Shown here: piece by piece, positions 2,317-64,000 of the stretch | Numbering within the stretch: position 1 is the first letter of the stretch | How the letters are laid out: the number at the start of each line of letters is the position of its first letter | Virus record (IMG/VR): IMGVR_UViG_3300028602_000006 | Strand: one strand, 5' to 3' | DNA: 64,000 nt | Source: a virus | Taxonomy: Duplodnaviria; Heunggongvirae; Uroviricota; Caudoviricetes | Notes under the pieces: model-generated | Told to the model about the DNA's origin: nothing | Database searches by the model: none | What the model saw: the letters and a program-made list of their open reading frames with translations, nothing else | Position numbers and translations under genes: made by a program

Positions 2317-2424
2317 ATGATGGAAGTACAAAAATATATTAGGGAAAACGGTCTCGATAAACTTCGGGAAGAATTTTCGATAATTGTTACCGATTATCCT
2401 GACCGAATTGGAGCAATATTATGA
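2317..2424 (+). other. 35-aa leader ORF homologous to the N-terminus of the RNA-ligase-like gene at 7102, translationally coupled (ATGA) to the nuclease-helicase gene
   Basis: Hand translation gives MMEVQKYIRENGLDKLREEFSIIVTDYPDRIGAIL. This aligns with MTMHVQKYLREKGLKSLIDEFHIDVREYDDRIV of the 7102 ORF at roughly 60 percent identity. Its stop TGA at 2422-2424 overlaps the ATG at 2421. Confidence 0.5.
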
Positions 2425-4619: not shown

Positions 4620-4684
4620 ATATTATTGACATTGCTTGTCGGATATGTTAATCTTTTCATATCTTAAATGGTAAAGGATATTTA

Positions 4685-5881
4685 ATGAGTCAAGAAAAAA
4701 TATTGGATGCTCAAGCTGTTAGAAGTGTTTATGAGAAGTTTTCTATAGATTTGCCAAATATAGGCAATCTACAGAACGTTTTTACTCCTTATTCGCTTTG
4801 CAAGGATATGATTGGACGCCTGAAGAAGTATAAGAGGAAGTTTGAAGGAGCGAACTTCTCTGTTTTTAATCTTGAATTTGCTGAAGTTTTAATGTATGAT
4901 TATGGAGTTAAGGCAAATCAGATTTGGTTCTTTACTGATTGTGTTGAGAAGAGCAAATTCGCTCAGTTGAATAGGTATGCGGGGTTGAATGTCGAATTGG
5001 TTAATTTAAGCCGATTCTTACGGGAGAAGATTACTATGAAATTTGATGTTGTTATTATGAATCCGCCTTATCAGGCCCCTAAAGCCAAAGAGCACGAAGG
5101 GAGAGGAAAATGTGGAACATCGCTGTGGGAAGATTTTGTTAGGAAATCCTTTGAATTGGCGAAAGATGATGGATATGTTTGTGCTATTCACCCTAATAGG
5201 TGGAGAAGACCCGAGGGCAAAATTGGCGAATTAATTAAGTCAAAACAAATTCATTATCTTGAAATGCATGGACTGGAAGACGGAAGGAAAACATTTTCTT
5301 GCCAAACCGATTATGATTGGTATATTGCTCAAAACAAAAAATCAGAGACCAATACGCAAGTTGTAGACTATGATGGTGAATCAAATTCAATTGATTTGAA
5401 AAACGCTCCTTTCATTCCCAACTCCAATGTGAAAGATGTTTTGTCTCTCGTCGCAAAAGAAGGAGAAGAAAAAGTCAATTTGTTATGGAACTGTGAATAT
5501 CATACTCAAGCAAGAGCAAAAGACGGAACGATGTCACCAATACAAACCGATGAATTTAAATACCCTTGTGTTTATTCTGTAACAATCAAAGGAGAAGTTA
5601 AGTTTTGGTACTCAAGCAAAAAAGAACAATTTTTTGGAATTCCTAAGGTCATATGTTGCAATGGTCATACTATGCCAATTGTTGACAAAAATGGGGAGTA
5701 CGGATTAACTCAATTCGCATTTGGAATAGCTGATAAAAAAACAAATTTAGAAAAAATACAAAATGTTATGAATTCTGATGAATTCAGGAAAACAATAATG
5801 GGTTATAGAGATAATGGTGGCAATGTTTATGACAAGAACATGATAGCAACTTTCCGCAAAGATTTTTGGAACGAAATATGA
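4685..5881 (+). CDS. N6-adenine DNA methyltransferase (NPPY) with C-terminal putative target-recognition region
   Basis: VVIMNPPYQAP is a motif IV. Upstream NVFTPYSLCKDMI is a motif X-like element. No clear FxGxG motif I in this ORF. Confidence 0.6.
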   Translation: MSQEKILDAQAVRSVYEKFSIDLPNIGNLQNVFTPYSLCKDMIGRLKKYKRKFEGANFSVFNLEFAEVLMYDYGVKANQIWFFTDCVEKSKFAQLNRYAGLNVELVNLSRFLREKITMKFDVVIMNPPYQAPKAKEHEGRGKCGTSLWEDFVRKSFELAKDDGYVCAIHPNRWRRPEGKIGELIKSKQIHYLEMHGLEDGRKTFSCQTDYDWYIAQNKKSETNTQVVDYDGESNSIDLKNAPFIPNSNVKDVLSLVAKEGEEKVNLLWNCEYHTQARAKDGTMSPIQTDEFKYPCVYSVTIKGEVKFWYSSKKEQFFGIPKVICCNGHTMPIVDKNGEYGLTQFAFGIADKKTNLEKIQNVMNSDEFRKTIMGYRDNGGNVYDKNMIATFRKDFWNEI

Positions 5882-6453
5882 AAACCACCACAAAAACTTG
5901 TACCAAACGCCAAAATCGAAAAAAACAAACTGCTGAGGATTTTACTCCGGCATGGTTGGTTAATCAAATGCTCGACAAGTTAAATGAATATGGAAAAGAA
6001 TCATGGGAAGAAGGGAAAACTTTTCTTGATCCTGCTTGCGGGAATGGAAATATGCTCGTATGTGTTTTGAAGCGTAAAATAAAACTAGGACATGATCCAT
6101 CAGAGGCATTGAAAACTATCTATGGAACCGACATAATGGATGATAATATCAAAGAGTGTCGCTTAAGGCTCCTTAAAATTATTCAAGAAGAAGGAATTAA
6201 AATAACACTTGAGCACATTAAATCTGTGTTTAATAATATTATTGTAACGAGATTGAGTAGATACAAAAGTGGATCTCTTGACTATAATTTCAAATTCAAA
6301 AACAAAGCATCGCATAAAGATGTTATTAAGTGGTTAGACGGAATACAGAACCACAACTGGCTTGAGTTAGTGGGACACGAAAACATTAATGCCATCATAA
6401 AAAATGACGTTGAAGCTAGTTTTGTTGAAGAGAAATTTGCCGCATTCTTTTAA
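5866..6453 (+). CDS. Methyltransferase N-terminal-like fragment (motif X + motif I + post-I, no NPPY)
   Basis: FTPAWLVNQML, LDPACGNGNMLV (FxGxG-type) and IYGTDIMDD. Overlaps the previous ORF by 16 nt in another frame. Confidence 0.45.
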   Translation: MERNMKTTTKTCTKRQNRKKQTAEDFTPAWLVNQMLDKLNEYGKESWEEGKTFLDPACGNGNMLVCVLKRKIKLGHDPSEALKTIYGTDIMDDNIKECRLRLLKIIQEEGIKITLEHIKSVFNNIIVTRLSRYKSGSLDYNFKFKNKASHKDVIKWLDGIQNHNWLELVGHENINAIIKNDVEASFVEEKFAAFF

Positions 6454-8601: not shown

Positions 8602-9411
8602 TTGAAAGGAATAAATATGAAGATACATTTGTTGACGATTGATCCTCAGCGAGATTTCTGTAGTCCAAACGGCGCTCTTTTTGTTCAGGATGCAGATCAA
8701 GACATGATTCGTTTAGCGGCAATGGTTGACCGTTTGCGCAATAAAATTGATGATATCCACGTTACGCTGGATAGCCACAATGAAGTAGACATTGCTCACC
8801 CTATATTCTGGATTGATTCTAACGGAGCGCATCCTAATCCCTTTACTATTATTACAGAAGAGGATGTTGTCAAGGGTGTATGGACAACTACTAGGCCAAC
8901 ATGCCGCCAGCGAGCAGTTGATTATGTTAAAGCCTTAGCTTCCAACGGGCGCTACCCTCTTTGTATTTGGCCTCCTCACTGTATTATCGGTACAGAAGGA
9001 TGGACAATTCAGCAGCCTCTTGCTGACTCATTGTCAAATTGGTGCAAAGATCGCTTTAAGAAAGTAGATTATCAGGTTAAGGGTTCAAACGTATTTACTG
9101 AGCACTATAGCGTTTTCAGGGCAGATGTAATAGATCCGTCTGATCCATCAACGATGTTAAACACTGATCTCATTAAGGTTATTTCTGAAGCTGACGAAAT
9201 TTTGATCGCTGGCGAAGCAAGAAGCCATTGTGTCAATCATAGTTTTCGTGATCTTATCGGGGAACTTGGCAAGGAACACGCTCAGAAGTTCATTCTTCTT
9301 GAGGACGCTATGAGTGATGTAACGGGATTCGAAAATCTTGGAAAACAGTTTTTCGATGATATGATAGCTCTCGGCGTAAAATCAACCACAACTAAAGATT
9401 ATCTTGCATAA
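8602..9411 (+). CDS. Isochorismatase-family cysteine hydrolase (nicotinamidase PncA-like)
   Basis: N-terminal LLTIDPQRDFC (Asp of the D-K-C triad) and C-terminal GEARSHCVNHS (catalytic Cys context). Confidence 0.5.
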   Translation: MKGINMKIHLLTIDPQRDFCSPNGALFVQDADQDMIRLAAMVDRLRNKIDDIHVTLDSHNEVDIAHPIFWIDSNGAHPNPFTIITEEDVVKGVWTTTRPTCRQRAVDYVKALASNGRYPLCIWPPHCIIGTEGWTIQQPLADSLSNWCKDRFKKVDYQVKGSNVFTEHYSVFRADVIDPSDPSTMLNTDLIKVISEADEILIAGEARSHCVNHSFRDLIGELGKEHAQKFILLEDAMSDVTGFENLGKQFFDDMIALGVKSTTTKDYLA

Positions 9412-9447: not shown

Positions 9448-10221
9448 ATGCCTGATATTACAAATGAAACTACTGATATGACGAATCTACAGACGGCTTC
9501 CCGTTATGGATTCAGCGCTGTAGGACTTGATTCCTTGGGCGCTTCTGAATATACATTGGCTACCGTTGTTGTGGATGTCTCAGGATCAGTATCTGGATGG
9601 GTTAAACAACTAGAAGATTGTCTTAAGGCGATTCTTAAATCATGCCAAAGTTCACCTAGAGCAGATAACCTTCTACTGCGTTTAGTTTCTTTCGGAGATA
9701 ACGTCAACGAAGTTCATGGGTTTCGTCTTTTGGGCGACATTGATCCCAATGAATATGACAATTGTTTGACAATAAAAGGATGTACCGCTCTATTTGACGC
9801 AACGCACACTTCTGTTGAAGCTACAGCAGATTATGGCAAGTTGCTTATAGATCAGGGCGATATGACTGCGAATGCGGTTATCTATGTATTGACGGATGGA
9901 GGAGATAATGCCTCGAAGAATACTGCTTCTACTATTAAGAAATTATTGCAAAAAGTTAGATCGGATGAAAAACTGGAATCAATAGCAGTTATTCTAATTG
10001 GGGTGGGGTATGACGAAGATCATCTAAAGATATATCTTGATAAGTTCAAAAATACTGCCGAACTAGATCAGTTTGTCGATTTAACTGAATTGTTTAATAA
10101 TAGCTCGCCCGACAAGGCATTAGCTAAACTTGCAGGATATGTTAGTAAAAGTATATCGTCTACTTCACAGGCGCTTGCTAGCGGATCTTCTGCCGTATCA
10201 TCTTCATTATTGACATTTTAA
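9448..10221 (+). CDS. von Willebrand factor A (vWA) domain protein, TerY-like
   Basis: MIDAS motif VVVDVSGSVSG, downstream TDGGDN, about 250 aa. Confidence 0.6.
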   Translation: MPDITNETTDMTNLQTASRYGFSAVGLDSLGASEYTLATVVVDVSGSVSGWVKQLEDCLKAILKSCQSSPRADNLLLRLVSFGDNVNEVHGFRLLGDIDPNEYDNCLTIKGCTALFDATHTSVEATADYGKLLIDQGDMTANAVIYVLTDGGDNASKNTASTIKKLLQKVRSDEKLESIAVILIGVGYDEDHLKIYLDKFKNTAELDQFVDLTELFNNSSPDKALAKLAGYVSKSISSTSQALASGSSAVSSSLLTF

Positions 10222-11309: not shown

Positions 11310-12185
11310 ATGAATACAGATAGCTATTTTGAAATAGGTAACTCTCATGAAGTTTGCCAAGATTTTGCAATTTCCGGCAATATTAATGAGAATATAAGTT
11401 TTGCCATTGTAACGGACGGATGCACGACGTCTCATAATCAGTGCGCCCAAGTAGATACAGGGGCCAGAATTTTAGCCTATTCCGCAAGAGAAGCCTTAAA
11501 AAAGATTTGGGCAGATAAGGATTCAACAATATTCGAAAACACGACTCAAGAAATGGTTAGTGAATTTTTACGGAACCAATCAATTGTTACAACTAGATTG
11601 ATTGAACGTCAACTTGGTCTAGATCCATTATGTGCCGACTGTACGCTTGTTGTGGCTGTTGCAGATAAATTCGGGAATGCTCATTCTTTTGTATACGGTG
11701 ACGGATCTGTTTTTGTACAATTAAAGGATGGGTCGCAACATATGATGGATGTGACATTTTTGAGTGGAGCGCCTCTTTATTTGTCCTATCAAACAGATGA
11801 ACCCAGAAAAATTGCATATATGGGTGTTTATGGTAATCTTCCAGTCCTTATTGATCGTTATATTTTGGACGGAGGAGAAATAGAAACAAAAAACTCTAAC
11901 CAGATTTTAGCATATGATTATGGTTTATATGGAGCTTGCAATTCTCAATGGAAGGACGTTGATTTTATATCTGTAACATCCGATGGCGCTAAAAGTTTCT
12001 TGAAAAATGAGGGAAATGAAACAAACACAGTCCCTCATATTAAAATAATGAACGAATTCAATGCTATCAAAAACAGAAATGGAGTTTTCATTCAAAGAAG
12101 AATGAAGACGATGGGGAAGTCTAATAAGAAATTAAATATCTCTCATTACGATGATATTTCTATATCTGCCATTTTAGTTGGATAA
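11310..12185 (+). CDS. PP2C-family Ser/Thr phosphatase-like protein
   Basis: FAIVTDGCTTSH resembles the PP2C metal-binding xxDGHGG motif. GDGSVF lies downstream. Placed between the vWA and kinase genes. Confidence 0.45.
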   Translation: MNTDSYFEIGNSHEVCQDFAISGNINENISFAIVTDGCTTSHNQCAQVDTGARILAYSAREALKKIWADKDSTIFENTTQEMVSEFLRNQSIVTTRLIERQLGLDPLCADCTLVVAVADKFGNAHSFVYGDGSVFVQLKDGSQHMMDVTFLSGAPLYLSYQTDEPRKIAYMGVYGNLPVLIDRYILDGGEIETKNSNQILAYDYGLYGACNSQWKDVDFISVTSDGAKSFLKNEGNETNTVPHIKIMNEFNAIKNRNGVFIQRRMKTMGKSNKKLNISHYDDISISAILVG

Positions 12186-12188: not shown

Positions 12189-13877
12189 ATGCCAAAAATC
12201 GCATATAATATTGAGGGAATTGGAAATGTTGTCGTAACAGACAATAATTACCTTGGGGCTGGCGGCGAGGCGAATGTCTATGCGAAGAATGATCTTGCAA
12301 TAAAGATATATCACGATCCCTCTCGGATGATACCCATTCAAAAGATAGAAGAATTGCGGGAGATTAAAGACAAACGAGTCCTCGTACCAAAGCATATTGT
12401 TTATAAATCAGGAAGCTCCCCTGTAGGGTATGCAACTCCTTTCAAACCTGATACGCATCCTTTATGTAAACTCTTCACAAAGACATTTAAAGTTAAAAGT
12501 GGGATTAGCGATGACATGATAAATAATCTCGTTGTTGAAATGCAGCAAACTATTAAGAACATACATAAGGCAAATTGCTTAGTAGTTGACTTGAATGAAA
12601 TGAACGAGCTGGTTTCTCCTAAATTCGATAACATATATTTTATTGATGTCGATAGCTATGAAACCCCATCATTCAGGGCTACGGCGATAATGGAAAGCGT
12701 CAGAGATAGGCAGATTAGAAAACAGCGATGGAATGAAGGAAGCGATTGGTATTCATTTGCCATTTTATCGTTTCAGATGTGGATTGGCATACATCCTTAT
12801 AAAGGCAAACATCCCGATTATAAACCCGCTGAGTGGACAAATCGCATGGATGAAGGCGTATCTGTATTCGATCCTAAAGTTATTTTACCTAGAACTTGCT
12901 CGGATTTGTCTGTTATACCCAAAAGTCATATAGAATGGTTGCGAGATATTTTTGTCAATGGAGCTAGATGCTCTCCGCCTGATATGTCAGACAATTTACT
13001 TATAGTTGTCCCAAATTCATTTAAATTTATTACGGCTAGTAAATCTTTTGAAACAAAACTTATAGAAACTTGTTCTGAGCTAATTAATCGAGTCTTTAAC
13101 TTTATTGGGGTTAACTATTTAATAGGCAAAACTAATATACACAGGGGCAGGGCAATCGTACCTGTTAATATTGATGGGGCAGATGAAGTGTTAATGTGCG
13201 AATCGGAGGGAGTTGACCCTATAATTTGTATTCAAAAAAACGGGATAGCCAGATTTTATTGCGAGAAAGGTCAAGAGTTTGGTTCAATATCTGCAAATTC
13301 CATGATGGCTAGAAACGGCTGTATTTATACAATATATGACGGACGTTTAATGGAAAACACATTTAGCCGCATGGGGAATAAGCTTATACATTCCTGTAGG
13401 CAATCCGCTTCTGTAATGGACTTATCGACGCAAATGTTTAATGGGGTTATAATTCAAGATATATTAAACAAGAAGTATGTTACGTTACCCTATGCGAAAG
13501 GTCTCTGCGCTCATCTTCCAGTAAAAGAACTTGATGGTTATCGCATTCTAGGCGCAAAATCCGAGCGAAATGTTTGTGCTATTATGGCTGAAAAAAGTGG
13601 TAAATATTATCGCTTTGTATTATCGTTTGGCGCAACATATTCTAATTATACTGTTAGAGTTGTTGCGGATGTTCCCTATGCCGACATCAATTTAACAGTA
13701 ATGCCCAATGGAGTCGCAGTTCTTGCCTTAGAAGATTCTGTAGAAATATTTAAAGATGAAGGTGTTAAGATAATTGACAATCCCCCATTCGACGCTACAA
13801 AAAGAATATTTAATATCTCCGGGGTTATACATTATATTGATGGGAAAGAATTATATACTGCAAAAATGAAGAGTTGA
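12189..13877 (+). CDS. Ser/Thr protein kinase-like protein with large C-terminal extension
   Basis: Gly loop GAGGEANVY, AIK lysine, catalytic-loop-like HKANCLVVDLNEMN, DFG-like IDVDSYE. Confidence 0.55.
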   Translation: MPKIAYNIEGIGNVVVTDNNYLGAGGEANVYAKNDLAIKIYHDPSRMIPIQKIEELREIKDKRVLVPKHIVYKSGSSPVGYATPFKPDTHPLCKLFTKTFKVKSGISDDMINNLVVEMQQTIKNIHKANCLVVDLNEMNELVSPKFDNIYFIDVDSYETPSFRATAIMESVRDRQIRKQRWNEGSDWYSFAILSFQMWIGIHPYKGKHPDYKPAEWTNRMDEGVSVFDPKVILPRTCSDLSVIPKSHIEWLRDIFVNGARCSPPDMSDNLLIVVPNSFKFITASKSFETKLIETCSELINRVFNFIGVNYLIGKTNIHRGRAIVPVNIDGADEVLMCESEGVDPIICIQKNGIARFYCEKGQEFGSISANSMMARNGCIYTIYDGRLMENTFSRMGNKLIHSCRQSASVMDLSTQMFNGVIIQDILNKKYVTLPYAKGLCAHLPVKELDGYRILGAKSERNVCAIMAEKSGKYYRFVLSFGATYSNYTVRVVADVPYADINLTVMPNGVAVLALEDSVEIFKDEGVKIIDNPPFDATKRIFNISGVIHYIDGKELYTAKMKS

Positions 13878-13909: not shown

Positions 13910-15109
13910 ATGAACAACGAGAATAAATCCGGTTTAACCTTATTCACTGTTATGATAATGCTGGCGTTTTTATCTATAGTGGGGGTATATGCATACAACG
14001 CTATGAGGACGGACATCTATATTTCTAACAATTATAGAGAAGGAGTTGAAGCTTTTTGTCAGGCCGATGCGGGTATTTTTTATGTTAGGGGATTAATAGA
14101 GCAACAGCTTAAAGAGGATACTCTTATATTTGTGGATGGGGATAACTCAGTTTTTTATGAGCCTCCCGAAGGATTTACATTCTTGCCTATCACTAATATA
14201 CATAAGATATCTGAGGGTATATATTGCTATGAATGTACAGGAAAGAAGAATAATTCTAGCGCTACGGTTAAGGTGGTTGTGGCCAGAAAACCTCTCCTTA
14301 TGGCAGGGCTGTTGGGGGATTTAAGATTAAACATACAACCTTTGGTGAATATTTATAGCTATGATTCCATAAGTACATTTAATCCTATTCCTTCAGACAG
14401 TTCATCAGAAGCAACCATCGGTTCAAATTTTTTAATAGAAATATCTCCCGGAGTATTTATCGACGGAGAGATAGAGATTGGACAGTCACCTGATGGGATA
14501 CCTGCTGTAATTGTGGGGGATTTAGCAGCTCCAATAGTTGATTTTGGAAGATTTGAAGAAGATCCGCTCGGCGCTATTGGAGGAGAAATTGAATCACAAT
14601 TTATCGAATATATGCAACCTGTTAATAATAACAATTTATTGGTAGATCCTCCTCAGGCAGTAGTCGGTACGGAACTATTTATGAAGAAAAATACTGCAAC
14701 TCAATTTGTTACACTAGAGGCGGGAAATTATTATCTCACTGATATTCAAATCGGTCCAGACTGTGTATTAACAATTGATGACTCAAACGGTCCCGTTAAC
14801 ATTTATCTGGACGGAGAAATGTATGCAGGCCCAGGTAGCGACATAAATAGCCCATCGCCATTGTCTTTCAGTATTTTTTCTAGGGCAGAAGATCCTATTT
14901 TAGTGCAACCAAACGGGAGTTTTGACGGGTTTATATATGCGCCATTTTCAGAAGTTACTATGAAACCGGGGAATGATGGTCATGGTGTTGTATGGGGAGA
15001 TAAAGTATATTTGTATCCTCAGGGCGATTGGTATATTGATATAAATCTTTTAAAGAGATTTTTGTCGAAAGAATTATATTTTATGAGCTGGAAAGAAATT
15101 AGAAACTGA
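13910..15109 (+). CDS. PilX-like (type IV pilus minor pilin/assembly) N-terminal domain protein
   Basis: GLTLFTVMIMLAFLSIVGVYAYNAMRTDIYISNNYREGVEAFCQADAGIFY resembles the PilX_N pattern (hydrophobic helix ... AfqAAEAGl). Confidence 0.35.
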   Translation: MNNENKSGLTLFTVMIMLAFLSIVGVYAYNAMRTDIYISNNYREGVEAFCQADAGIFYVRGLIEQQLKEDTLIFVDGDNSVFYEPPEGFTFLPITNIHKISEGIYCYECTGKKNNSSATVKVVVARKPLLMAGLLGDLRLNIQPLVNIYSYDSISTFNPIPSDSSSEATIGSNFLIEISPGVFIDGEIEIGQSPDGIPAVIVGDLAAPIVDFGRFEEDPLGAIGGEIESQFIEYMQPVNNNNLLVDPPQAVVGTELFMKKNTATQFVTLEAGNYYLTDIQIGPDCVLTIDDSNGPVNIYLDGEMYAGPGSDINSPSPLSFSIFSRAEDPILVQPNGSFDGFIYAPFSEVTMKPGNDGHGVVWGDKVYLYPQGDWYIDINLLKRFLSKELYFMSWKEIRN

Positions 15110-15186: not shown

Positions 15187-17250
15187 ATGTCAATTGAACA
15201 AAAAATAAGTATATGTTTCGGGCAAATTGAGGTCGCTCCCGGTCTCCCTAGGGTCAACACTGAAAAAATGTTGAAGTATATCAAAGAAGCTAAAGCTGAA
15301 GCATCGGATCTATTGATATTCCCAGAATTATGCATTCCGGGATACCTTCTTGGAGATATGTGGGAACGTCCTGATTTTCTAGAAGATTGTGAAGAATGCG
15401 GTAAGAAAATAATTGAAGCTTCTCAAGGAATAACTATAGCCTTCGGGAATGTCAAAACAGATCCTAAAAATAAAAACGAAGACGGCAGAATCCGTAAATA
15501 TAATTGCTGTTTTATAGCATCAAACGGGCAATTGGTCACAACTGTCACAAAAACTTTACAGCCAAACTACAGGGAATTTGATGATAATCGCCACTTTTAT
15601 GACAAGCGTAAGCAATTGACTGATTCATATCTTTCAGAGCCAAGTACAAAGGTTTCATTTTCTGAATTCATTGATAAGGCCTATGAGCCATCCTTAACAA
15701 TAAATGGAATTAAGATTGGATTCTTACTCTGTGAAGACGCTTGGGATACAGATTATTCATTCTCTCCTATAGATGTACTCGCACCCAAATGCGATCTGAT
15801 AGTCAATATGAGTTGTTCTCCGTTTACCATGGGGAAGAACCAAAAAAGGAACAGGCTTTTCTCTCAAAGAGCTAAAAATAATAATGTTATGATTGCCTAT
15901 ATAAATAATGTGGGCATTCAAAATAACGGGAAAACAATTTATACTTTCGATGGGAATAGTTGTCTTTATGATATTAATGGTGCGCAGTTTGACCTTTCTG
16001 CTCCTTTTGAAGAAAGCCTTGAAGTTTTAAGCTTGGATTTAGATGCTCGTACAGGATCATATGAAGAGAGCGCCATTGGTTCGTCAAGCGATGATATTGA
16101 AGATTTGTATTCATCAATTTGTTATGGAATCGAAAAATTTCTTCAGCAGATAGGAGTTAATAAAGTAGTAATTGGTGTATCCGGCGGGATTGATTCGGCT
16201 GTTGTTGCGGCGTTGTTTTCTGAAATTCTTCCTCCGGAAAATATTTATCTTATTAACATGCCTAGCTCTTTTAATTCTCAAACCACAAAAGACTTGGCAA
16301 AAGACTTGGCTAAAAATCTGGGATGTAAATATAGTATAATTCCTATTGGATGTAGTATTGATCACACTAGAGAACAATTATTAAAAGAAGGATTTGATGT
16401 TAGTAAATTCGTTTTCGAGAACATTCAGGCAAGAGATCGTTCTTCCAGAATTCTTGCGGCCATTGCTTCTTCAGTAGGCGGGGTTTTCACTTGCAACGCC
16501 AATAAGTCTGAGGCAACCGTAGGGTATACGACTCTCTATGGGGATTTGTCCGGATTTTTGTGCCCATTAGCTGACGTATGGAAGACAGACGTGTACAAGC
16601 TTGCTGAGTATATAAATGATAGTAGTGATGAGATGATCATTCCCTATGGCATACTCGCAGTTAAGCCTTCGGCAGAATTAAACAACGATCAAAATGTCGA
16701 TGAGGGGAAGGGAGACCCTATTATTTACCCCTATCATGATTTGCTATTTAGAAGTTGGGTAGAAAAGTGGGAGAGGGCAACCCCCGCTGACATTCTACAA
16801 TGGGTCATAGATGATGATTTAGAAGGGAAATTAGGCTTTGAGGATGGGGATATAGTTGCCAAGTATTTTGGAGGAGATAAAAGAGCTTTTGTTGCCGACT
16901 TGGAAAGATGGTGGAATCTATATGACGGATTTGCTTATGCGAAAAGAATTCAGGCTCCTCCTGTTCTTGCGATCAGCCGCAGAAGTTACGGATTCGATCA
17001 CAGAGAAAGTTTAACCGCTCCATTTTATAGCCAAAAATATTACAAACTTCGTATGCAATATTTGGGAGAAGATTTGTCCATGAAAGAGGTTTATGACAAT
17101 TTAAAAACTATAAAAGAGAATGTCATTTTTGTTATGGCGAAAGAAGCTGGATTAGATATGGGAAAGTTTACAACCAAGGATTTAGCTCTTAAGGGATTCA
17201 TGTCCAAGATCTATGATTTATCCGATGAAGATATGGTTCATTGGGAGTGA
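15187..17250 (+). CDS. nadE: Glutamine-dependent NAD+ synthetase (nitrilase/CN-hydrolase domain + NAD synthase PP-loop domain)
   Basis: N-domain FPELCIPGY (Glu) and LLCEDAWD (Cys). C-domain PP-loop VIGVSGGIDSAVVAAL. 687 aa, typical of the fused form. Confidence 0.8.
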   Translation: MSIEQKISICFGQIEVAPGLPRVNTEKMLKYIKEAKAEASDLLIFPELCIPGYLLGDMWERPDFLEDCEECGKKIIEASQGITIAFGNVKTDPKNKNEDGRIRKYNCCFIASNGQLVTTVTKTLQPNYREFDDNRHFYDKRKQLTDSYLSEPSTKVSFSEFIDKAYEPSLTINGIKIGFLLCEDAWDTDYSFSPIDVLAPKCDLIVNMSCSPFTMGKNQKRNRLFSQRAKNNNVMIAYINNVGIQNNGKTIYTFDGNSCLYDINGAQFDLSAPFEESLEVLSLDLDARTGSYEESAIGSSSDDIEDLYSSICYGIEKFLQQIGVNKVVIGVSGGIDSAVVAALFSEILPPENIYLINMPSSFNSQTTKDLAKDLAKNLGCKYSIIPIGCSIDHTREQLLKEGFDVSKFVFENIQARDRSSRILAAIASSVGGVFTCNANKSEATVGYTTLYGDLSGFLCPLADVWKTDVYKLAEYINDSSDEMIIPYGILAVKPSAELNNDQNVDEGKGDPIIYPYHDLLFRSWVEKWERATPADILQWVIDDDLEGKLGFEDGDIVAKYFGGDKRAFVADLERWWNLYDGFAYAKRIQAPPVLAISRRSYGFDHRESLTAPFYSQKYYKLRMQYLGEDLSMKEVYDNLKTIKENVIFVMAKEAGLDMGKFTTKDLALKGFMSKIYDLSDEDMVHWE

Positions 17251-18227: not shown

Positions 18228-18261
18228 AAAAAACGGTAGATATTTTTCTACCGTTTTTTCT
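18228..18261. terminator. Bidirectional rho-independent terminator
   Basis: AAAAAACGGTAGA-TATTTT-TCTACCGTTTTTTC. Perfect 7-bp stem flanked by an A-run and a T-run. Confidence 0.7.
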
Positions 18262-18323: not shown

Positions 18324-18689
18324 ATGACAGAAGAAAATAAGTCTAATTTTACATTAGGAACAGATGAAGAAATGGAAGTAGTAACTCCGGAGGCACAGGT
18401 TATATCCGAAGTTAAGAGCTATACAGACAATGAGGGACGCTCAATAACAGGTTTGTATCCTCTTGACGGATCGGTGGCGACATTTATAGGCGGATTTGTC
18501 GTTCAATCTAATATGGGTCCAATTCGTATGAGGATTGATTTCCCAGAAGGATTGAAGCTTGAAGAATGCTTCGACCAATTTGACTTTTTGGCGCAGGAAA
18601 CAATGCAAAAAGCGCAGGAAGAGGCAGAGAATAGAAGCCGTATTATCACACCCGATCAGGCCAGAAAATCCGGCATAATTGTTCCATAA
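18324..18689 (+). CDS. Hypothetical protein
   Basis: SD AGGAGAAAAAAATG. No motif. Confidence 0.4.
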   Translation: MTEENKSNFTLGTDEEMEVVTPEAQVISEVKSYTDNEGRSITGLYPLDGSVATFIGGFVVQSNMGPIRMRIDFPEGLKLEECFDQFDFLAQETMQKAQEEAENRSRIITPDQARKSGIIVP

Positions 18690-18857: not shown

Positions 18858-20192
18858 ATGGCATCGTTAGTTGAGAAAGTACATCTGATAAAGTCTGACC
18901 CAGTAAACAATAACAATAAGTTTTGGATTGGAGAATTATATGATGATGATTCCGTGGTTTGTAGATGGGGAAGAGTCGGAGATACTGGGCAAAGTAAATC
19001 ATTCCCCAGCGGAGGAAAGAAATTTTTAGATTCAAAAGTCCGCTCTAAAAAGAAATCAGGACGTAATGGTGAAATCGCATATCGAGAAATAGAAATTATA
19101 GACGGAGCAAGCGTTCCTGCACCCAAAACATCCTCTACAAAAACTACCAGCGGTAGCCAACTATCTCAAATCGCCAAAAAGCAAATTCAAACTGGTGGTA
19201 ATCCTGAGGCACTTAAACTCATTGATTACCTTGTTAAAGTTAACGCTCATCAAATCGCAAGTATGACGGGTGGCCAAATTACTTATAACTATGATACAGG
19301 TCTTTTCCAAACTCCGATGGGTCTTGTTTCTCAGGCTAATATTGATGAAGCGAGAGATAAAATTACAGGTATTGGTGATATTGTAGCAAAGAAAAAGTAC
19401 AATGATCCTAATCTTATGGAACTTACTAGGGATTATCTTATGCTTGTCCCTCAGGATATTGGGCGTAAAAGGCTTGAACTTGATGATTTTTGGTGCGATC
19501 TAACTGCCGTTCAGAAACAGGATGCTATTCTTGACGGGCTTCAAGCTTCTTTAACGCAAGCAGCTAAAACCCCCGTAAAGTCCGTCAAAGATAATAAGCC
19601 CGAAGAGCAAATATTTCAAACTAAGCTCGAACTCGTTTCCGATCCTAAGGCGATTAAGAAAATAAAGGACTTATACCATAAAACTCGTCAGTCTATGCAT
19701 AATTGTTATCACCTTGATGTCAAAAAAGTATATACAATTGATATTAATACGGTTCAAGATGCGTTCAAAAGAGACGGCGCTAAGATGGATAATGTTTGGG
19801 ATCTTTGGCATGGGACTAGAGCGAGTAATCTACTCTCCATTCTTAAGGGCGGATTGATTATTCCGCCGTCAAATGCATCAAATGTTACTGGGCGTATGTT
19901 CGGAAATGGGGTTTACGCTTCTGATCAGTCCACAAAGGCTCTTAACTATGCTTATGGATATTGGGGCGGGGGCAAATCAGATGACAACTGCTTTATGTTC
20001 CTTCTTAAAATGGCCATGGGTAATTATTACACTCCTAAAAGTCCGTTTTCAGCTAACTCTGCTCCCAAAGGCTATGATTCCACCTTTGCACAGGCTCATA
20101 AGAGCGGGGTATATAATAACGAAATGATTGTATATAGGACATCCCAAATAAATCTTAGGTATTTGGTGGAATTTAGTCCGAATGGTAAATAA
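18858..20192 (+). CDS. Poly(ADP-ribose) polymerase-like protein (WGR domain + PARP catalytic domain)
   Basis: N-terminal WGR (FWIGELYDD...CRWGRVGDTGQ). Catalytic H-Y-E triad context HGTRASN...GIYFA-like GNGVYASDQ...YNNEMIVY. Confidence 0.75.
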   Translation: MASLVEKVHLIKSDPVNNNNKFWIGELYDDDSVVCRWGRVGDTGQSKSFPSGGKKFLDSKVRSKKKSGRNGEIAYREIEIIDGASVPAPKTSSTKTTSGSQLSQIAKKQIQTGGNPEALKLIDYLVKVNAHQIASMTGGQITYNYDTGLFQTPMGLVSQANIDEARDKITGIGDIVAKKKYNDPNLMELTRDYLMLVPQDIGRKRLELDDFWCDLTAVQKQDAILDGLQASLTQAAKTPVKSVKDNKPEEQIFQTKLELVSDPKAIKKIKDLYHKTRQSMHNCYHLDVKKVYTIDINTVQDAFKRDGAKMDNVWDLWHGTRASNLLSILKGGLIIPPSNASNVTGRMFGNGVYASDQSTKALNYAYGYWGGGKSDDNCFMFLLKMAMGNYYTPKSPFSANSAPKGYDSTFAQAHKSGVYNNEMIVYRTSQINLRYLVEFSPNGK

Positions 20193-26386: not shown

Positions 26387-26675
26387 TTTGTCTGAACAAT
26401 CATTCAAAAATTCGCTCCATACTAATGAACGAACAAACATGAGTACCATTGATGATGACTATATGTTTGTTGCTTCAACTGATATGCCCGCATTATTGCC
26501 CAAACGGAAATTGGAAATATATCATAAGTGTTTATTGCCGGGTTGCGAAAATATGACATCACATAATGGAGGATATTGTAGCGCAGAACATTGTCGTCTG
26601 CATCGTAAAGGGATTAGTTTTCCACCTCTGAAGCCCCCTCATCAAGTAGCTCTTGTTCATCCGGCAATAGAATAG
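26358..26675 (+). CDS. Hypothetical protein with C-terminal zinc-ribbon-like motif
   Basis: CLLPGCEN...GGYCSAEHCRLH. Confidence 0.35.
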   Translation: MREKMETVIDLSEQSFKNSLHTNERTNMSTIDDDYMFVASTDMPALLPKRKLEIYHKCLLPGCENMTSHNGGYCSAEHCRLHRKGISFPPLKPPHQVALVHPAIE

Positions 26676-26937
26676 ACAGGAGTTTTTGCAATTCACCAAC
26701 ATGGACTTTCTCTTCATCTGCAATATCCTGTAGAGTTTTTTTCACAGTTTCATTGTCAGTTGAATCAACTACAGTCTCATATTGCTTTATTGCATCTTCT
26801 TCGGCTATGATGGCGTCCCTGATCGCCCTTGTAAGCTCTCTATCATTAAGCATTTCCATCGTTTCGACATTATCTAAATGTTGCGCTTTTCTTAATAAAA
26901 TCATATTTCCTGAATCTATATGCATGGTTTTCTCCAA
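26614..26937 (-). CDS. Ferritin-like/rubrerythrin-like four-helix-bundle protein
   Basis: Only clear minus-strand gene in the first 47 kb. Paired ExxH-type segments AIIAEEDAIKQYE and ADEEKVHVGEL. Followed by an AT-rich gap. Confidence 0.45.
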   Translation of the reverse strand: MEKTMHIDSGNMILLRKAQHLDNVETMEMLNDRELTRAIRDAIIAEEDAIKQYETVVDSTDNETVKKTLQDIADEEKVHVGELQKLLSILLPDEQELLDEGASEVEN

Positions 26938-27383: not shown

Positions 27384-28553
27384 ATGGAAATAAAATCTTT
27401 GTTGGTCGATGAACCTCCGTCTATTATTGCTGATTCTGTAATGGAATCAGCAATAACTTTACCTATCCAAAACGAAATCAAACGAATTGAGCGATGGGAC
27501 AACTGGCAATGGCAAATGCAAAACCGCATTAGAACAGTTTCTCAATTAAACAAGCAGTTTCCTTACCTAAATACGAGTGGCATATATGATGCATCTGTGA
27601 AATTTCCGTTTGCAATTACTCCGTATTACGCATCTTTAATTAGGAATGCCGATTTGTCAGACCCCATATTTGCAATGAGTGTTCCTCAGGCGGAAGAACT
27701 ATTGAATCCATCTTATTTGAAAGAAGACCCGCTTGAAGAAGAAAAGTACATGCCTGTTCCGGGATTAGTCCATAGATACCCAGACAGAGCGTTGTTAATC
27801 ACAACATCGTCCTGCGCCATGTATTGCCGTCATTGTACTAGGAAAAGAGTTGCGGGTAAAAGAGATACTTGCGTTAATGAATCTCAGCTTAGTAAAATGA
27901 TAGATTATTTGAGGATTCACCCAGAAATCCATGATGTAATTATATCTGGAGGAGATCCGCTAACAATGTCCACTGGTAAATTGGAATCGATAATTAAACA
28001 AGTCAGATCTGTTGAGAGCGTTGATATTATCAGAATAGGAACTAGGACTCCTGTTGTCCTCCCAATGAGAATAACATCCGTATTGGTCAATATGTTGAAG
28101 AAATATCATCCAATATATATTAACACTCATTTCAATCACCCAAATGAATTAACTCCGCAGGCTCTTGAGGCCTGTTCAAAATTAGTAAATGCAGGTATTG
28201 TTCTCGGTAATCAGTCTGTTTTATTAAAGGGTGTTAATGACGACGCTACAACAATGGAAACCCTGCTCCGTGGGTTATTAAAAGCAAGAGTAAAACCATA
28301 TTATTTATTCCAATGTGACTTAATAAGCGGTACAGAGCATTTTAGAACCCCGATATCAAAGGGAATTGAAATTATGGAGTATCTAAGGGGAAGACTAAGC
28401 GGATTGGCTATCCCATCTTATATTGTTGATCTTCCCAATGGAGGGGGTAAAATTCCAGTCCTTCCTAGCTATATTGTGGCATTTAAAGATGAATATACCT
28501 TATTCAGGAACCCAGAGGGCGATTTGATCCGCTATCCTTGCCCCATCCACTAA
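27384..28553 (+). CDS. Lysine 2,3-aminomutase family radical SAM enzyme (KamA/EpmB-like)
   Basis: CAMYCRHCTRK (CxxxCxxC) and ISGGDPLT signature. 389 aa. Confidence 0.75.
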   Translation: MEIKSLLVDEPPSIIADSVMESAITLPIQNEIKRIERWDNWQWQMQNRIRTVSQLNKQFPYLNTSGIYDASVKFPFAITPYYASLIRNADLSDPIFAMSVPQAEELLNPSYLKEDPLEEEKYMPVPGLVHRYPDRALLITTSSCAMYCRHCTRKRVAGKRDTCVNESQLSKMIDYLRIHPEIHDVIISGGDPLTMSTGKLESIIKQVRSVESVDIIRIGTRTPVVLPMRITSVLVNMLKKYHPIYINTHFNHPNELTPQALEACSKLVNAGIVLGNQSVLLKGVNDDATTMETLLRGLLKARVKPYYLFQCDLISGTEHFRTPISKGIEIMEYLRGRLSGLAIPSYIVDLPNGGGKIPVLPSYIVAFKDEYTLFRNPEGDLIRYPCPIH

Positions 28554-28609: not shown

Positions 28610-28867
28610 ATGAAGATAGAAGAAAAATTATGGCGGACTTTAATCAGGGTAGAACGATATGACAGCAAGAATATCTACGTGGTAATTCCGGGATATAACG
28701 TTAATGAAGAAATTACAATACCAAAATCAATAATTCCCGAAGATGTCTTAGTGGTTATTGAAACTGAAATTGACGAAGAAGAAATTTATCGTTTTCATGT
28801 ACAATGCAATATCGGGGCAAAAAGCAAAGAAGACTTGATTTTTGCTCCTCCTTGGGAATGCGAATGA
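28610..28867 (+). CDS. Hypothetical protein
   Basis: Stop overlaps the GNAT start (ATGA). Confidence 0.35.
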   Translation: MKIEEKLWRTLIRVERYDSKNIYVVIPGYNVNEEITIPKSIIPEDVLVVIETEIDEEEIYRFHVQCNIGAKSKEDLIFAPPWECE

Positions 28868-29304
28868 AAGACTTTGCCATAGAACACTACTCGGATCAGT
28901 GTAAGATTGACGATTTATGGGATTTCATAGAAGATAACCTATCGCTAAAAGGATTCCCAAGCCCTGCGTTCTGGATTACTAAACGGGCATTAGAACTGCG
29001 AAGAAAAAATAATGAGATTTTGCTTGCAATGATCGATAATAAAATGATAGGATGTATTGTATTAAATAGAAGCCTTATTGAAATCTTATGCATTAAAAGG
29101 AGATACAGAAAGCGTGGAATAGGTAATAAGCTAGTAAGATATGCGGAAGAATTACTTAAAAAAGACGCTAGAAGGAAATACTTAAGAGTTGATAGCTTTA
29201 AACCTTTTAAAGCTAAAAACTTTTATGATAAGATGGGGTTCGAAACATATAATCAAAGCGAATACTGCGATACATGGCACTTTAGGAGAAAACTAAATGA
29301 ATGA
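28858..29304 (+). CDS. GNAT-family N-acetyltransferase
   Basis: Acetyl-CoA motif A CIKRRYRKRGIGNKLVRYAEELL (R/Q-x-x-G-x-G/A). Start at 28858 or 28864 assumed rather than 28804. Confidence 0.6.
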   Translation: MRMKDFAIEHYSDQCKIDDLWDFIEDNLSLKGFPSPAFWITKRALELRRKNNEILLAMIDNKMIGCIVLNRSLIEILCIKRRYRKRGIGNKLVRYAEELLKKDARRKYLRVDSFKPFKAKNFYDKMGFETYNQSEYCDTWHFRRKLNE

Positions 29305-31583: not shown

Positions 31584-32366
31584 ATGAGTAATTCAATAGA
31601 TCAGGTAATTCGGGATGTAATTGATAAATTTGTGTCGGACGGTTTCATGTTTACCGCTTTCGATGTAACTCGTACCGTCAGGGAAGAAGTTGGGAAGAGC
31701 ACCTCTGTTTCTCATAATGATGTTAAAGTAATTATTCAGAATGCTTTTAATAATGGTGAGCTGGGCCAGTATGTACGTGATTTGATTAACGTAGGAACTA
31801 AAGTAGAGCCTTTTGTCTATTATCATCCATATAGCGATATAGTAAATTATGATCCCAAATGGATTCTAAATGATCCTAAACAGGACAATATGAAGGCCGA
31901 TTTATCCAAAGTGCCGTCAACTCCTGTAAACCCTGTTACTCCGTCCACTTCTGGCGGTTATCAGCCTCCAATACTTGATCTTGATGAAGACGATACTACT
32001 CCTGTTTCTGCGGCACCATCATCCACAGCAGGATCGCTTGCCATTTCAAATGCCATTCAACCCAAAAATAATCTCGGCAAGAACCAGCACCGATTGACGA
32101 GAGAAGGGCGTTTGCAAATTCCTATAAACATTGTTCGAGAGGCTGGATTTCAGGTCAACCAGAATACTTCTGTTATTAATGACAATGGAAAATTAACTAT
32201 TATGGGACAAGCAATCCCCGCAGTGAATTCAGAAATTGTCAGGGTTAATAAAGATGGCCGCATTAGAATATGCCACTCCATCTTAAAGTCAATCACTAGT
32301 AATCCCAAGAATGAAGTGTTTAAAGTTGAACGAAATAACGGAGAAATTATTATTGAAACTGTTTAA
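31584..32366 (+). CDS. Hypothetical protein with two C-terminal AbrB/SpoVT-like swapped-hairpin motifs
   Basis: GRLQIPINIVREAGF and DGRIRICHSILKSI resemble AbrB/MazE-type motifs. Low-complexity Pro/Ser/Thr linker in the middle. Confidence 0.35.
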   Translation: MSNSIDQVIRDVIDKFVSDGFMFTAFDVTRTVREEVGKSTSVSHNDVKVIIQNAFNNGELGQYVRDLINVGTKVEPFVYYHPYSDIVNYDPKWILNDPKQDNMKADLSKVPSTPVNPVTPSTSGGYQPPILDLDEDDTTPVSAAPSSTAGSLAISNAIQPKNNLGKNQHRLTREGRLQIPINIVREAGFQVNQNTSVINDNGKLTIMGQAIPAVNSEIVRVNKDGRIRICHSILKSITSNPKNEVFKVERNNGEIIIETV

Positions 32367-32455: not shown

Positions 32456-33028
32456 ATGAATGAAACAAACAGAGATATTTTGAAAAACCATTTTAGTCGT
32501 ATTGATTTTGACCCTAGGTTTAAATCAGATAACATTATTTATTGGTTTGACGGAACAGAATACTCATTCTTGAGCAATTTTCATATGCACCCCATAAAAT
32601 ATAATGGGAAAGTTTATGCATCAACGGAACACGCCTTTCAAGCCGCAAAAACCCTCGATGATATGTGGAAAGAAGCTATCCGTATTACAAAAACTCCCGG
32701 AGAAGCTAAGAGAAAGGGAGGTTTATGCCCCTTGAGACCCGATTGGGAGGAAGTAAAAAATTCAGTCATGGCCGAAGTATTGGAAATAAAGTTTCAAGGC
32801 CCTTATCTACAAGACGCATTACTTAACACCTATCCGAATTATCTTGTTGAAGGTACGCTATGGCATGATAACTGGTGGGGGATTTGCCTATTGAAAGATT
32901 GCAAGAAATGTGAAGATAAGAAGGCGTTAAACATGTTAGGAATTCTTTTAATGGAATTGAGAGAAAAAATACTAACAAGACGATTACAGGAAGAGGTTGA
33001 TCTAGTTAGGGGCATTGAAGGTAATTAA
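32456..33028 (+). CDS. NADAR (YbiA-like, DUF1768) domain protein
   Basis: YWFDGTEYSFLSNFHMHPI...ASTEHAFQAAKT...WHDNWWG are hallmark NADAR blocks. Confidence 0.7.
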   Translation: MNETNRDILKNHFSRIDFDPRFKSDNIIYWFDGTEYSFLSNFHMHPIKYNGKVYASTEHAFQAAKTLDDMWKEAIRITKTPGEAKRKGGLCPLRPDWEEVKNSVMAEVLEIKFQGPYLQDALLNTYPNYLVEGTLWHDNWWGICLLKDCKKCEDKKALNMLGILLMELREKILTRRLQEEVDLVRGIEGN

Positions 33029-48734: not shown

Positions 48735-49202
48735 TTATTTATAATTTTTATCCAAAATAGATACATTTTTACCACTAAATACGCAACATGTTAGTATCCC
48801 GCTTTCTAATATCTTTACACCATCATATTTATGAATATCTTGAATGACATTGTTTATAACCCAACTTGTGCTAACATCATCTATATCTGGTCTAGATAGC
48901 AATTGCGTTTCGACATTAGAATCGTTAAATTTTATCCCGATGTCAGAAAATAGGAATTCAATGTCTCCGTCATCTATATTTATTGTATCATCCATATCAT
49001 ACGCTGTTAAATCTAAGTAGTTAGAGGCGGATAATCTCACGGTATATAGGACGTTTGCCTTTTTGCCTTCTGTAGACCAACTAATATAGTCAGATGCCAT
49101 ATTTTTATCACTAGTAAACCAACTGTAATCATTAAATTGATCAAAATCTTTTACTGATCCATGATACCATAACTCGGCAGATGCTATTTTATATATTCTC
49201 AT
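48735..49202 (-). CDS. Hypothetical protein directly upstream of the solo tnpB
   Basis: Same strand as tnpB, 3-nt gap. No HuH motif, so not TnpA. Confidence 0.4.
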   Translation of the reverse strand: MRIYKIASAELWYHGSVKDFDQFNDYSWFTSDKNMASDYISWSTEGKKANVLYTVRLSASNYLDLTAYDMDDTINIDDGDIEFLFSDIGIKFNDSNVETQLLSRPDIDDVSTSWVINNVIQDIHKYDGVKILESGILTCCVFSGKNVSILDKNYK

Positions 49203-63781: not shown

Positions 63782-64000
63782 TTCTGTCAGCAAAACAATT
63801 GGCTCTTAGAGAGTATTATCAAGAAGTATTCAAGGAGTGGGAAACTCTTGATAATAACTTGCAGAATGTTTTTACGCCTTATGATCTTTGTGAGAAAATG
63901 ATAGATAAGGTTTGCAAGTATTGTGAACTAAAGGGCAAAAAGATATTGGTTACGAATTTGGAATTTGCTATAGTTCTTGTTGAAAGAGGGATTGATCCTA
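63779..64000 (+). CDS. Methyltransferase paralog (5' part; continues beyond window)
   Basis: LQNVFTPYDLCEKMI...NLEFAIVLVERG parallels LQNVFTPYSLCKDMI...NLEFAEVLMYDYG of 4685. ATGA overlap with the helicase gene. Confidence 0.5.

Follow-up and report, generated by a model that had tools for sequence, protein, structure and literature searches.

Among the closest described relatives of the gene considered here are two bacterial poly(ADP-ribose) polymerases (PARPs), HaPARP of Herpetosiphon aurantiacus and CdPARP of Clostridioides difficile CD160. Both make poly(ADP-ribose) (PAR) in vitro, and HaPARP requires DNA (PMC8120803, PMC5966428, PMC4245714). Viral PARPs are also on record (Perina 2014, PMC4245714): for those of jumbo phages, PARylation of proteins of the host has been predicted (Iyer 2021, PMC7824862), PART/PARP is among the commonest viral ADP-ribosyltransferase (ART) families (Iyer 2022, PMC9503650), and gut 'NAD-jumbo phages' combine genes for the synthesis of nicotinamide adenine dinucleotide (NAD+), including nadE, with NAD+-dependent enzymes including PARP (2024, PMC11662467). 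The subject of the present analysis is a PARP gene within a stretch of 64,000 nucleotides (hereafter the window) of the IMG/VR virus record IMGVR_UViG_3300028602_000006. The product of its open reading frame (ORF) is a compact protein of the PARP1-3 type, in which a WGR domain, a helical regulatory domain and an ART domain follow one another. It belongs to the WGR-PARP family already known from phages and bacteria, and is fairly divergent within it. Judged from its sequence, it is most likely a DNA-break-activated ADP-ribosyltransferase for phage nucleic-acid maintenance. Its recurring partner is a protein here called X, followed by DNA and RNA ligases; this place is taken neither by NADAR nor by NAD+ supply.

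Domain structure of the phage PARP

An earlier note on this DNA, made without database searches, had described the gene as encoding a WGR-PARP with an intact H-Y-E catalytic triad. It quoted four motifs, CRWGRVGDTGQ (residues 35-45, nt 18960-18992), HGTRASN (318-324, nt 19809-19829), GNGVYASDQ (349-357, nt 19902-19928) and YNNEMIVY (419-426, nt 20112-20135), and with these the Pfam profiles, the alignment to the Protein Data Bank (PDB) and the predicted fold all agree. The profile search for the three expected domains was successful for two of them, PARP catalytic (PF00644; E=9.2e-29, 100.8 bits, cutoff 26.7) and WGR (PF05406; E=1.8e-9, 38 bits, cutoff 22). The regulatory helical domain (PF02877; E=9e-5, 23 bits) stayed slightly below its cutoff of 26.8 and is visible in the structural model; it is on record for most homologues of this PARP. 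The protein also matches PHROG 23333 from end to end (E=5e-59). When it was compared with the PDB by phmmer, the top hits were catalytic fragments of human PARP1 (E=1e-23), and the alignment to PARP2 spanned residues 12-367.

A model was built with AlphaFold2 (AF2) from 67 members of the clade (mean predicted local distance difference test score, pLDDT, 79.8). It shows three folded modules, the WGR domain (1-80), a helical bundle (101-235) and the ART domain (255-441), with two disordered linkers between them. The top PDB matches returned by Foldseek were the WGR-CAT chains of PARP1 and PARP2 on DNA breaks (E ~5e-27, template modelling (TM) score ≤0.69). Target-normalised TM scores to PARP1 catalytic-domain structures were 0.61-0.69, and about 350 columns of the model align with PARP1 structures containing the helical and ART domains. 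The linker formed by residues 84-99, rich in Ser, Thr and Lys, is a possible automodification region. As a compact and probably soluble representative of a large clade, the phage PARP offers a practical entry point for biochemistry.

The GC content of the PARP region (0.38) agrees with that of the window, which is uniform (0.33-0.38), and the gene therefore seems resident rather than recently acquired.

Upstream of the gene, a strong terminator-like hairpin with a 13-bp stem and a subsequent T-run was found at 18228-18259 (+), between small ORFs ending at 18206 and a 121-residue ORF (18324-18689) that precedes PARP. Hence, this ORF and PARP may share a transcription unit of their own. A promoter scan around the PARP gene gave no signal higher than that of shuffled sequence.

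The catalytic site

In the phmmer alignment to the PDB, the blocks LWHGtRasN, GnGVYasD and YNnEmIVY fall on H862, Y896 and E988 of PARP1, the corresponding phage residues being H318 (nt 19809-19811), Y353 (19914-19916) and E422 (20121-20123). The catalytic Glu is thus retained, and the PARP fold is seen both in the AF2 model and by Foldseek. The same alignment places K360 on K903, Y364 on Y907 and M347 on M890, while A361 (codon 19938-19940) falls on S904 and N420 on Y986.

Conservation was assessed over 84 non-redundant homologues of viral, metagenomic and cellular origin (30-80% identical), 83 of which are full-length. All 83 keep the H-Y-E triad as well as G319, K360, Y364 and N420, so that Asn occupies the Y986 position throughout the phage and bacterial clade. 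The M347 position holds Met in 64 and Leu in 13 sequences, and position 419 varies. At the position of S904, a nicotinamide contact in PARP1, Ala is found in the sub-clade of the window (20/83) and Ser in the others. The invariance of the triad at such divergence points to selection on catalysis and shows that the PARP match is no chance event. The NAD+ donor site (H318, G319, Y353, K360, Y364, E422) is intact.

The earlier note had gone on to predict an active enzyme that could extend polymers, since the Glu is present. The Glu is there, but alone it is no predictor of the product: in PARP1, elongation and branching are tuned by M890, Y986, the D-loop and the acceptor loop besides E988 (PMC6486540), and Y986 is N420 in the phage protein. 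The sequence cannot decide between long polymers and mono- or oligo-ADP-ribose as the product. Polymer formation is nevertheless plausible, because bacterial enzymes of the same architecture, HaPARP and CdPARP, do produce PAR.

DNA-break contacts and proposed mechanism

The residues by which the PARP2 WGR domain holds a DNA break are N127, N129, K130, Y132, W151, R153, Q159, K179, K183 and Y201 (Obaji et al., PMC6294510). According to sequence and profile alignments, N18, N20, K21 and W23 of the phage protein correspond to the first four of these, and W37, R39, Q45, K60 and K64 to W151, R153, Q159, K179 and K183; G38 likewise falls on G152. Nine out of ten contact positions hence map to conserved residues of the phage WGR domain, and they are kept in 76-82 of the 84 sequences, the aromatic residues at positions W23 and W37 varying among W, Y and F. 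The WGR profile matched PARP3 (E=1.7e-9) and PARP2 (E=3e-6). For Y201 both kinds of alignment end too early, at about residue 67 of the phage protein; the candidate equivalent that we infer is Y75, an invariant residue of the last WGR strand, beyond the aligned part. By alignment, the WGR domain thus keeps the residues with which PARP2 grips a nick or a 5'-phosphorylated DNA end.

In the mechanism that we favour, the WGR domain would bind such a nick or 5'-phosphorylated end, and this would lift the block that the helical domain imposes on the ART active site. The ART domain would then move ADP-ribose from NAD+ onto the PARP itself, a partner protein and/or DNA ends, self-modification being most likely on the disordered Ser/Thr/Lys-rich linker. 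NadE, an NAD synthetase encoded in the window, would help to sustain the NAD+ pool drawn on by PARP and by other NAD+ users.

Distribution of phage and bacterial PARPs

The view of the earlier note that PARPs are rare outside eukaryotes is outdated. With a cutoff of E≤1e-5, a word-indexed protein search returned 2,641 homologues of the window PARP. Each of the best 120 is about 440 residues long and has the same domains, and the JGI name poly [ADP-ribose] polymerase is frequent among them. PARP loci were found in IMG/VR (67) and in cellular genomes (21). In IMG/VR, the contig reaches 100 kb or more for 40 of the loci, and 200 kb or more for 25. Armatimonadota account for many of the cellular loci, two of their chromosomal contigs measuring 1.0 and 6.1 Mb; other carriers are Planctomycetota, Omnitrophota, Variovorax, Gemmobacter and a Pseudomonas megaplasmid. 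Full-length homologues occur in isolated jumbo phages of Xanthomonas, Stenotrophomonas and Klebsiella at 33-40% identity, several of them annotated as PARP. The best matches reach 40% identity in isolated phages and 82% in metagenomes.

Protein X, a recurrent neighbour of PARP

For the analysis of gene neighbourhoods, 97 loci (numbered with the prefix L) were fetched and reduced to 84 non-redundant ones (PARP <90% identity), in which six-frame translations were searched. Unbiased clustering of the ORFs neighbouring PARP brought out a family of about 220 residues without a Pfam match, termed X. By hidden Markov model (HMM) search, X lies near PARP in 41/84 loci, namely in 33 of 65 viral or metagenomic and in 8 of 19 cellular ones. 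In 39 of the 41 it is located downstream of PARP on the same strand, and in 20 loci its reading frame opens ≤64 nt from the PARP stop. Members of the family are located, for example, at L019:3587-4279 and L078:6287-6967. The exceptions are L087, where X is adjacent upstream, and L081, where the match is doubtful. A count of 18/19 cellular loci, obtained by clustering on both strands, was rejected as an artefact caused by alternate-frame ORFs in GC-rich PARP genes.

The X of the window has an N-terminal winged helix, a disordered linker rich in S, T, P and D, and a C-terminal MraZ/AbrB-like double domain. Members of the family are about 200-260 residues long (the best 150 representatives span 100-343), and the family counts 1,615 cluster representatives at E≤1e-3, of which 828 remain at E≤1e-10. 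No PARP-X fusion was found among the best 150. No annotation of X was met in any source examined, a PADLOC search gave no match at E≤0.01, a PDB profile search returned AbrB alone (E=0.17), and only uncharacterised proteins were retrieved from BFVD. No paper describing the family was found in the literature searched, and the PARP-X pairing is the sole element of this locus that we found to be undescribed.

In the sub-lineage of the window, X is shifted to 11-15 kb downstream of PARP. NADAR comes after it, at a distance of 0.1-5.5 kb, in the window and in L098, L101 and L102, not in L099, and a contiguous PARP-X-NADAR order occurs in one unrelated locus, L031. The proximity of X and NADAR is suggestive and statistically weak.

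X is the likeliest candidate for an acceptor, recruiter or regulator of PARP. Tentatively, and as a possibility that we would not call probable, PARP and X may constitute an undescribed two-gene module of huge phages and several bacterial phyla. A break-sensing writer would here be joined to a dedicated DNA-binding acceptor, recruiter or regulator, forming a PARG-less, prokaryotic counterpart of the PARP-histone/HPF1 axis. NADAR would be an occasional eraser of nucleic-acid ADP-ribose, a part suggested by the gene order in L031 and by the X-NADAR adjacency in the window.

The occurrence of the PARP-X cassette both in phages and in scattered bacteria (Armatimonadota, Planctomycetota, Omnitrophota) would also suit a conflict module that is mobile between the two, with PARP as a break-triggered, NAD+-consuming or toxic effector in superinfection exclusion or abortive infection and X as its regulator or antidote. 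The AbrB/MazE-type fold is typical of antitoxins, and X has an AbrB/MraZ-like domain. Counter-defence genes occur near PARP in relatives, for example a homologue of Gad1 (anti-Gabija) 0.8 kb upstream of PARP in L007 (8195-9193). However, PARP, like X, matches no defence model (PADLOC-DB v2, E≤0.01). With 220-260 residues and a position downstream of the enzyme, X differs from typical antitoxins, which are small and encoded upstream; moreover, a phage NadE would counteract NAD+ depletion, and autoinhibition is built into PARP itself. We consider a conflict module improbable.

NadE, NADAR and the proposed NAD system

The first reading of this DNA had taken PARP, a NADAR gene at 32456 and NAD+ supply genes to suggest an ADP-ribosylation-based system of host manipulation or counter-defence. 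The NADAR gene is real (PF08719, E=3.5e-23, 83.1 bits, cutoff 35.1) and also matches PADLOC PDC-M42C (E=4e-8). As to NAD+ supply, one gene is clear, that for NadE with its CN_hydrolase and NAD_synthase domains (E=4.6e-43). The isochorismatase-like ORF stays below the Pfam cutoff (E=2.8e-5, 24.7 bits, cutoff 27), homologues of it being located near PARP in 9/84 loci, and no NAMPT, NMNAT, PncB or Nudix gene was found among window ORFs of at least 90 residues. In the de novo and Preiss-Handler pathways, glutamine-dependent NadE is the enzyme of the last step. Since only this last step is covered, the phage would still depend on nicotinic acid adenine dinucleotide (NaAD) from the host.

As a conserved unit, the system found no support when the loci were compared, neither gene showing a conserved association with PARP. 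A NadE homologue lies ≤10 kb from PARP in 5/84 loci, and NADAR, searched with an iterated HMM, equally in 5/84. Among seven neighbourhoods with precomputed Pfam annotation, five have an NAD synthase ≤10 kb from PARP; all of them are closely related and have RuvB-like, Rnl1, M16 or PNKP genes in common as well. The NadE-PARP link is hence lineage synteny and no general rule. Both NadE and NADAR were ruled out as conserved partners of PARP, NADAR being an occasional neighbour of X instead.

The NADAR substrates on record are ADP-ribosylated bases on nucleic acids, including guanine (PMC11125620), and NADAR is reported to remove ADP-ribose from cytidine too (PMC12945103). Phage NADARs have been proposed to shield phage DNA against DNA-modifying ARTs of the host (PMC11125620, PMC11543638). 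In the NADAR literature examined, no activity on PARP products is reported (PMC11125620).

Downstream of X and NADAR in two relatives (L101:1740-5598 and L102:7727-13147), an NT5C nucleotidase gene and two CTP_transf_like genes (NMNAT/NadD-type) were seen. One CTP_transf_like product also has a MazG match, and the whole looks like a block for nucleotide or NAD metabolism. No NT5C, CTP_transf_like or MazG gene was found in the window.

Ligases, repair genes and the search for erasers

DNA and RNA ligases are the next commonest neighbours of PARP after X. An Rnl1 RNA ligase is near PARP in 12-13 loci, often 65-1,000 nt upstream, and an ATP-dependent DNA ligase in 9-13 loci, often at <1 kb. One sub-lineage has topoisomerase II subunits, a dNMP kinase and a non-specific endonuclease near PARP; PNKP, RtcB, Pol X, KptA, RuvB-like, AlkB-like and DenV genes occur in individual loci. 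The company of X and the ligases points towards DNA-end biology and towards a specific candidate substrate or regulator.

A protein-type eraser was sought by signature. The PARG signature GGG-X6-8-QEE is absent from the window and from the 97 PARP loci within 10 kb, as examined by regular expression. With no eraser found, a reversible signalling cycle is not demonstrated.

The missing eraser would be less problematic if the acceptor were DNA. PARP would then place ADP-ribose on 5'- or 3'-phosphates at breaks or termini, capping them against exonucleases such as RecBCD, or marking or priming them for ligation. PARP1-3 modify phosphorylated DNA ends in a phosphatase-resistant manner, and 5'-phosphates modified by PARP3 may serve ligases, although the evidence for such activity of PARPs on DNA ends comes chiefly from in vitro work (PMC8385414). 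The phage enzyme has the minimal architecture of PARP2/3, ligases are frequent direct neighbours, and NADAR, a nucleic-acid ADP-ribose hydrolase, stands beside X in the window, L031 and L102. On the other hand, NADARs are documented on base-linked ADP-ribose, activity on the phosphate-linked form not being reported in the sources examined (PMC11125620), NADAR accompanies PARP in just 5/84 loci, and sequence does not discriminate DNA from protein acceptors. DNA-end modification is, in our estimate, distinctly unlikely to be the function.

Some further genes were observed near PARP in relatives. Homing endonucleases of the GIY-YIG or LAGLIDADG type lie directly downstream of it in three related contigs (L006:11390-12232, L007:11377-12354, L009:11099-12526), which suggests that the gene serves this lineage as a conserved landing site. 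A 524-kb relative (L002:1-5384) encodes, 5-10 kb upstream of PARP, both a Cas3-like helicase and a protein of 1,119 residues that carries a Cas12f-like TNB domain.

Role of the phage PARP

For a role in break signalling or end handling, be it in phage DNA replication, recombination or repair or under host nuclease attack, we see about an even chance. It is suggested by the ligase and repair neighbours and by the dedicated, predicted DNA-binding partner X over the 84 loci. Several observations weigh against this reading. Two PARP1 residues differ, Y986 being an invariant Asn and S904 an Ala, and in the window X is not adjacent to PARP, lying 11.4 kb away. The company of repair genes could reflect shared synteny of related huge phages and not function. 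Neither the window ORFs nor the seven neighbourhoods with precomputed Pfam annotation contain a Pfam match to PARG, Macro or ARH. No capsid, portal, terminase or tail gene is present in positions 1-71.4 kb of the source contig, and no experimental study of any phage PARP was found in the literature searched.

A rival reading is host takeover, in which PARP would redirect the cell by modifying proteins of the host, for instance RNA polymerase or the translation apparatus, in the manner of T4 Alt, ModA and ModB, adding chains where those enzymes add single units. This was proposed by Iyer et al. 2021 (PMC7824862) and agrees with the place of PART/PARP among the commonest viral ART families (PMC9503650); PARP is also among genes of early or middle type, and a sigma-70-like factor gene is nearby in relatives. 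The strict conservation of the WGR and autoinhibitory helical domains, by contrast, indicates break-dependent rather than constitutive activity. Unlike virion-delivered ARTs, PARP is neither fused to nor beside head or packaging proteins (PMC9503650), and the PARP-X pair is found in cellular chromosomes as well, where takeover would be senseless. Host takeover therefore appears unlikely to us, and break signalling or end handling remains the preferred role. The features concerned are listed in Table 1.

Table 1. Features of the PARP gene and of related genes in the window
Feature	Position	Strand	Support
PARP gene, 444 aa, ATG start; WGR, helical regulatory and ART catalytic domains	18858..20192	+	Pfam, PDB phmmer, PHROG, AF2, Foldseek
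WGR domain, aa 1-80	18858..19097	+	alignments to PARP2/PARP3 WGR
Disordered Ser/Thr/Lys-rich linker, aa 84-99, ASVPAPKTSSTKTTSG	19107..19154	+	pLDDT <50, composition
Helical PARP_reg-like autoinhibitory domain, aa 101-235	19158..19562	+	AF2 helices, sub-threshold PF02877, Foldseek
ART catalytic domain, aa 255-441	19620..20180	+	Pfam, PDB phmmer, AF2, Foldseek
Protein X, 260 aa, 11.4 kb downstream of PARP, next to NADAR	31584..32366	+	X-family HMM, E=4.4e-40
NADAR-domain protein, 190 aa, directly downstream of X	32456..33028	+	Pfam
Glutamine-dependent NAD synthetase (NadE), 687 aa, two genes / 1.6 kb upstream of PARP	15187..17250	+	Pfam
T4 Rnl1-type RNA ligase; family recurs beside PARP in other phage loci	7102..8343	+	Pfam
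Isochorismatase-like ORF, candidate nicotinamidase, weak	8602..9411	+	sub-threshold Pfam

Origin of the contig and gene content of the window

The window corresponds to positions 1-64,000 of the ENA contig ERZ27250894:k141_2398814 (182,571 bp), of which positions 1-71.4 kb (39% of 182.6 kb) were inspected. The identical protein is public at NCBI as 'MAG: WGR domain-containing protein [Synergistaceae bacterium]'. This label raises the alternative that the contig is a segment of a bacterial chromosome or plasmid, or another extrachromosomal element, and that its PARP is just another bacterial one, for PARP homologues do exist on real chromosomes. Besides the virion genes named above, tRNA genes were also not found in the inspected positions; phage status is therefore not directly demonstrated by the window, and no near-identical DNA was found in isolated phages. 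Against a cellular origin, the ORFs of the window are dense, mostly short and co-directional, few of them having Pfam matches. The annotated genes include a RuvB-like ATPase, the T4 Rnl1-type RNA ligase, DenV, YopX, an M16 peptidase and a radical-SAM enzyme, and there are IS200/IS605 and IS607-type elements with divergent TnpB copies as well as two paralogous helicase/Eco57I-like/N6-methylase blocks. Among PARP relatives, the closest with a shared gene order come from viral contigs of IMG/VR that measure 161-476 kb, the PARP matches a PHROG as described above, and the missing virion genes refer to 39% of the contig. A non-phage origin is very improbable in our view. Since the syntenic relatives are large viral contigs, a huge phage is the best reading, and a probable one. 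The phage-like character ascribed to the DNA at first is thus upheld by gene content of the huge-phage type and by viral relatives, and left short of proof by the missing virion genes and the NCBI label.

The two paralogous blocks, each with a ResIII helicase, an Eco57I-like methylase and a small N6-methylase, are located at 2421-6453 (+) and from 61391 to 64000, the latter reaching contig position ~65.5 kb (L100:10690-14787). Their proteins are 28%, 40% and 50% identical, there is no similarity at the DNA level, and a TnpB follows the second block. This TnpB lies just past the window edge (L100:14784-15872) and is the third copy. An IS200/IS605 unit consists of a Y1 TnpA (55799-56212) overlapping a TnpB (56209-57282, +), and an IS607-type serine recombinase was found at 59992-60735 (+). 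The remaining TnpB (47502-48731, -) stands without a neighbouring TnpA. Identities among the three copies are only 24-32%, so they were acquired independently. Three nt upstream of the minus-strand copy, on the same strand, is an ORF of 155 residues (48735-49202). It was considered as a second ART-like gene on account of an ART-PolyVal match, and was set aside as unconfirmed because the match was sub-threshold (E=8e-5) and neither PDB nor PADLOC gave one.

A vWA-like ORF (9448-10221), a PP2C phosphatase (11310-12185) and an ORF of 562 residues (12189-13877) are grouped on the plus strand. Homologues of the last in L006 and L009 have Pkinase matches, and the grouping resembles a vWA-PP2C-kinase triad. 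PP2C homologues are found ≤10 kb from PARP in 7/84 loci, four of which are cellular (e.g. L091). Pilin-like genes recur near the PARP/NadE region, as PilX_N/DUF7305 in the window (13910-15109, +) and as N_methyl prepilin-type genes in relatives (L006:13845-14225, L102:2569-3840). A rubrerythrin-like ORF (26614-26937, -) is among the few minus-strand genes of the window; after it come genes for a lysine-2,3-aminomutase-like radical-SAM enzyme (27384-28553) and for a GNAT acetyltransferase (28804-29304). Acyl-carrier-protein and YqeY-like matches were also seen among the window ORFs.

Comparison with known systems

Phage PARPs raise the question of which function break-activated ADP-ribosyl writing would serve in infected bacteria, which, to our knowledge, lack chromatin and usually PARG. 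T4 Alt, ModA and ModB are, like the window PARP, phage-encoded, NAD+-consuming enzymes of the ART fold. They belong to a different clade, however, the R-S-E (cholera-toxin-like) one, and are mono-ARTs without WGR or helical domains that target host proteins (PMC8120803).

With the 'NAD-jumbo phages' the window shares the pairing of nadE with NAD+-dependent enzymes, and the paper describing these phages lists PARP as a DNA-damage sensor (PMC11662467). They exceed 200 kb, whereas the contig of the window, which may be incomplete, has 182,571 bp, and the window carries NadE and a doubtful nicotinamidase in place of a full pathway. Protein X is not described in that paper (PMC11662467). The PARPs of isolated jumbo phages (Xanthomonas XacN1 and Xoo-sp13, Stenotrophomonas CM1/RAS14, Klebsiella FBKp34, Cellulophaga phi4:1; phages of 137-385 kb) are homologues with 97-99% coverage, annotated as 'poly (ADP-ribose) polymerase' and 33-40% identical to the window PARP; the Cellulophaga proteins match in the catalytic part only. 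Jumbo-phage PARPs have been noted in PMC7824862, and that of Cellulophaga phi4:1 in PMC4245714.

According to the published descriptions, HaPARP and CdPARP have the same three domains and the same triad as the phage PARP. As in many bacterial PARPs, the regulatory domain of the phage protein is missed by Pfam and shown by the model. HaPARP and CdPARP are paired with PARG, whereas no PARG signature accompanies the phage PARP in the window or in the 97 loci.

Human PARP2 and PARP3 resemble the phage PARP in the WGR-helical-ART order, in H-Y-E, in the equivalents of K903, Y907 and M890, and in the break-contact motifs NNNK(F/Y) and (W/Y)GRVG..GQ. The phage protein is just 20-25% identical to them, lacks the N-terminal disordered DNA- or chromatin-binding region and has a shorter WGR domain (about 80 residues), in which the Y201 equivalent is unaligned. 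Relative to human PARP1, it has Asn for Y986 and Ala for S904. HPF1, PARG and the histone context of the human enzymes are without counterpart. The recurring company of X and the ligases is also relevant to the question whether PARP signalling in eukaryotes has its origin in a module of phages or bacteria for the handling of DNA breaks.

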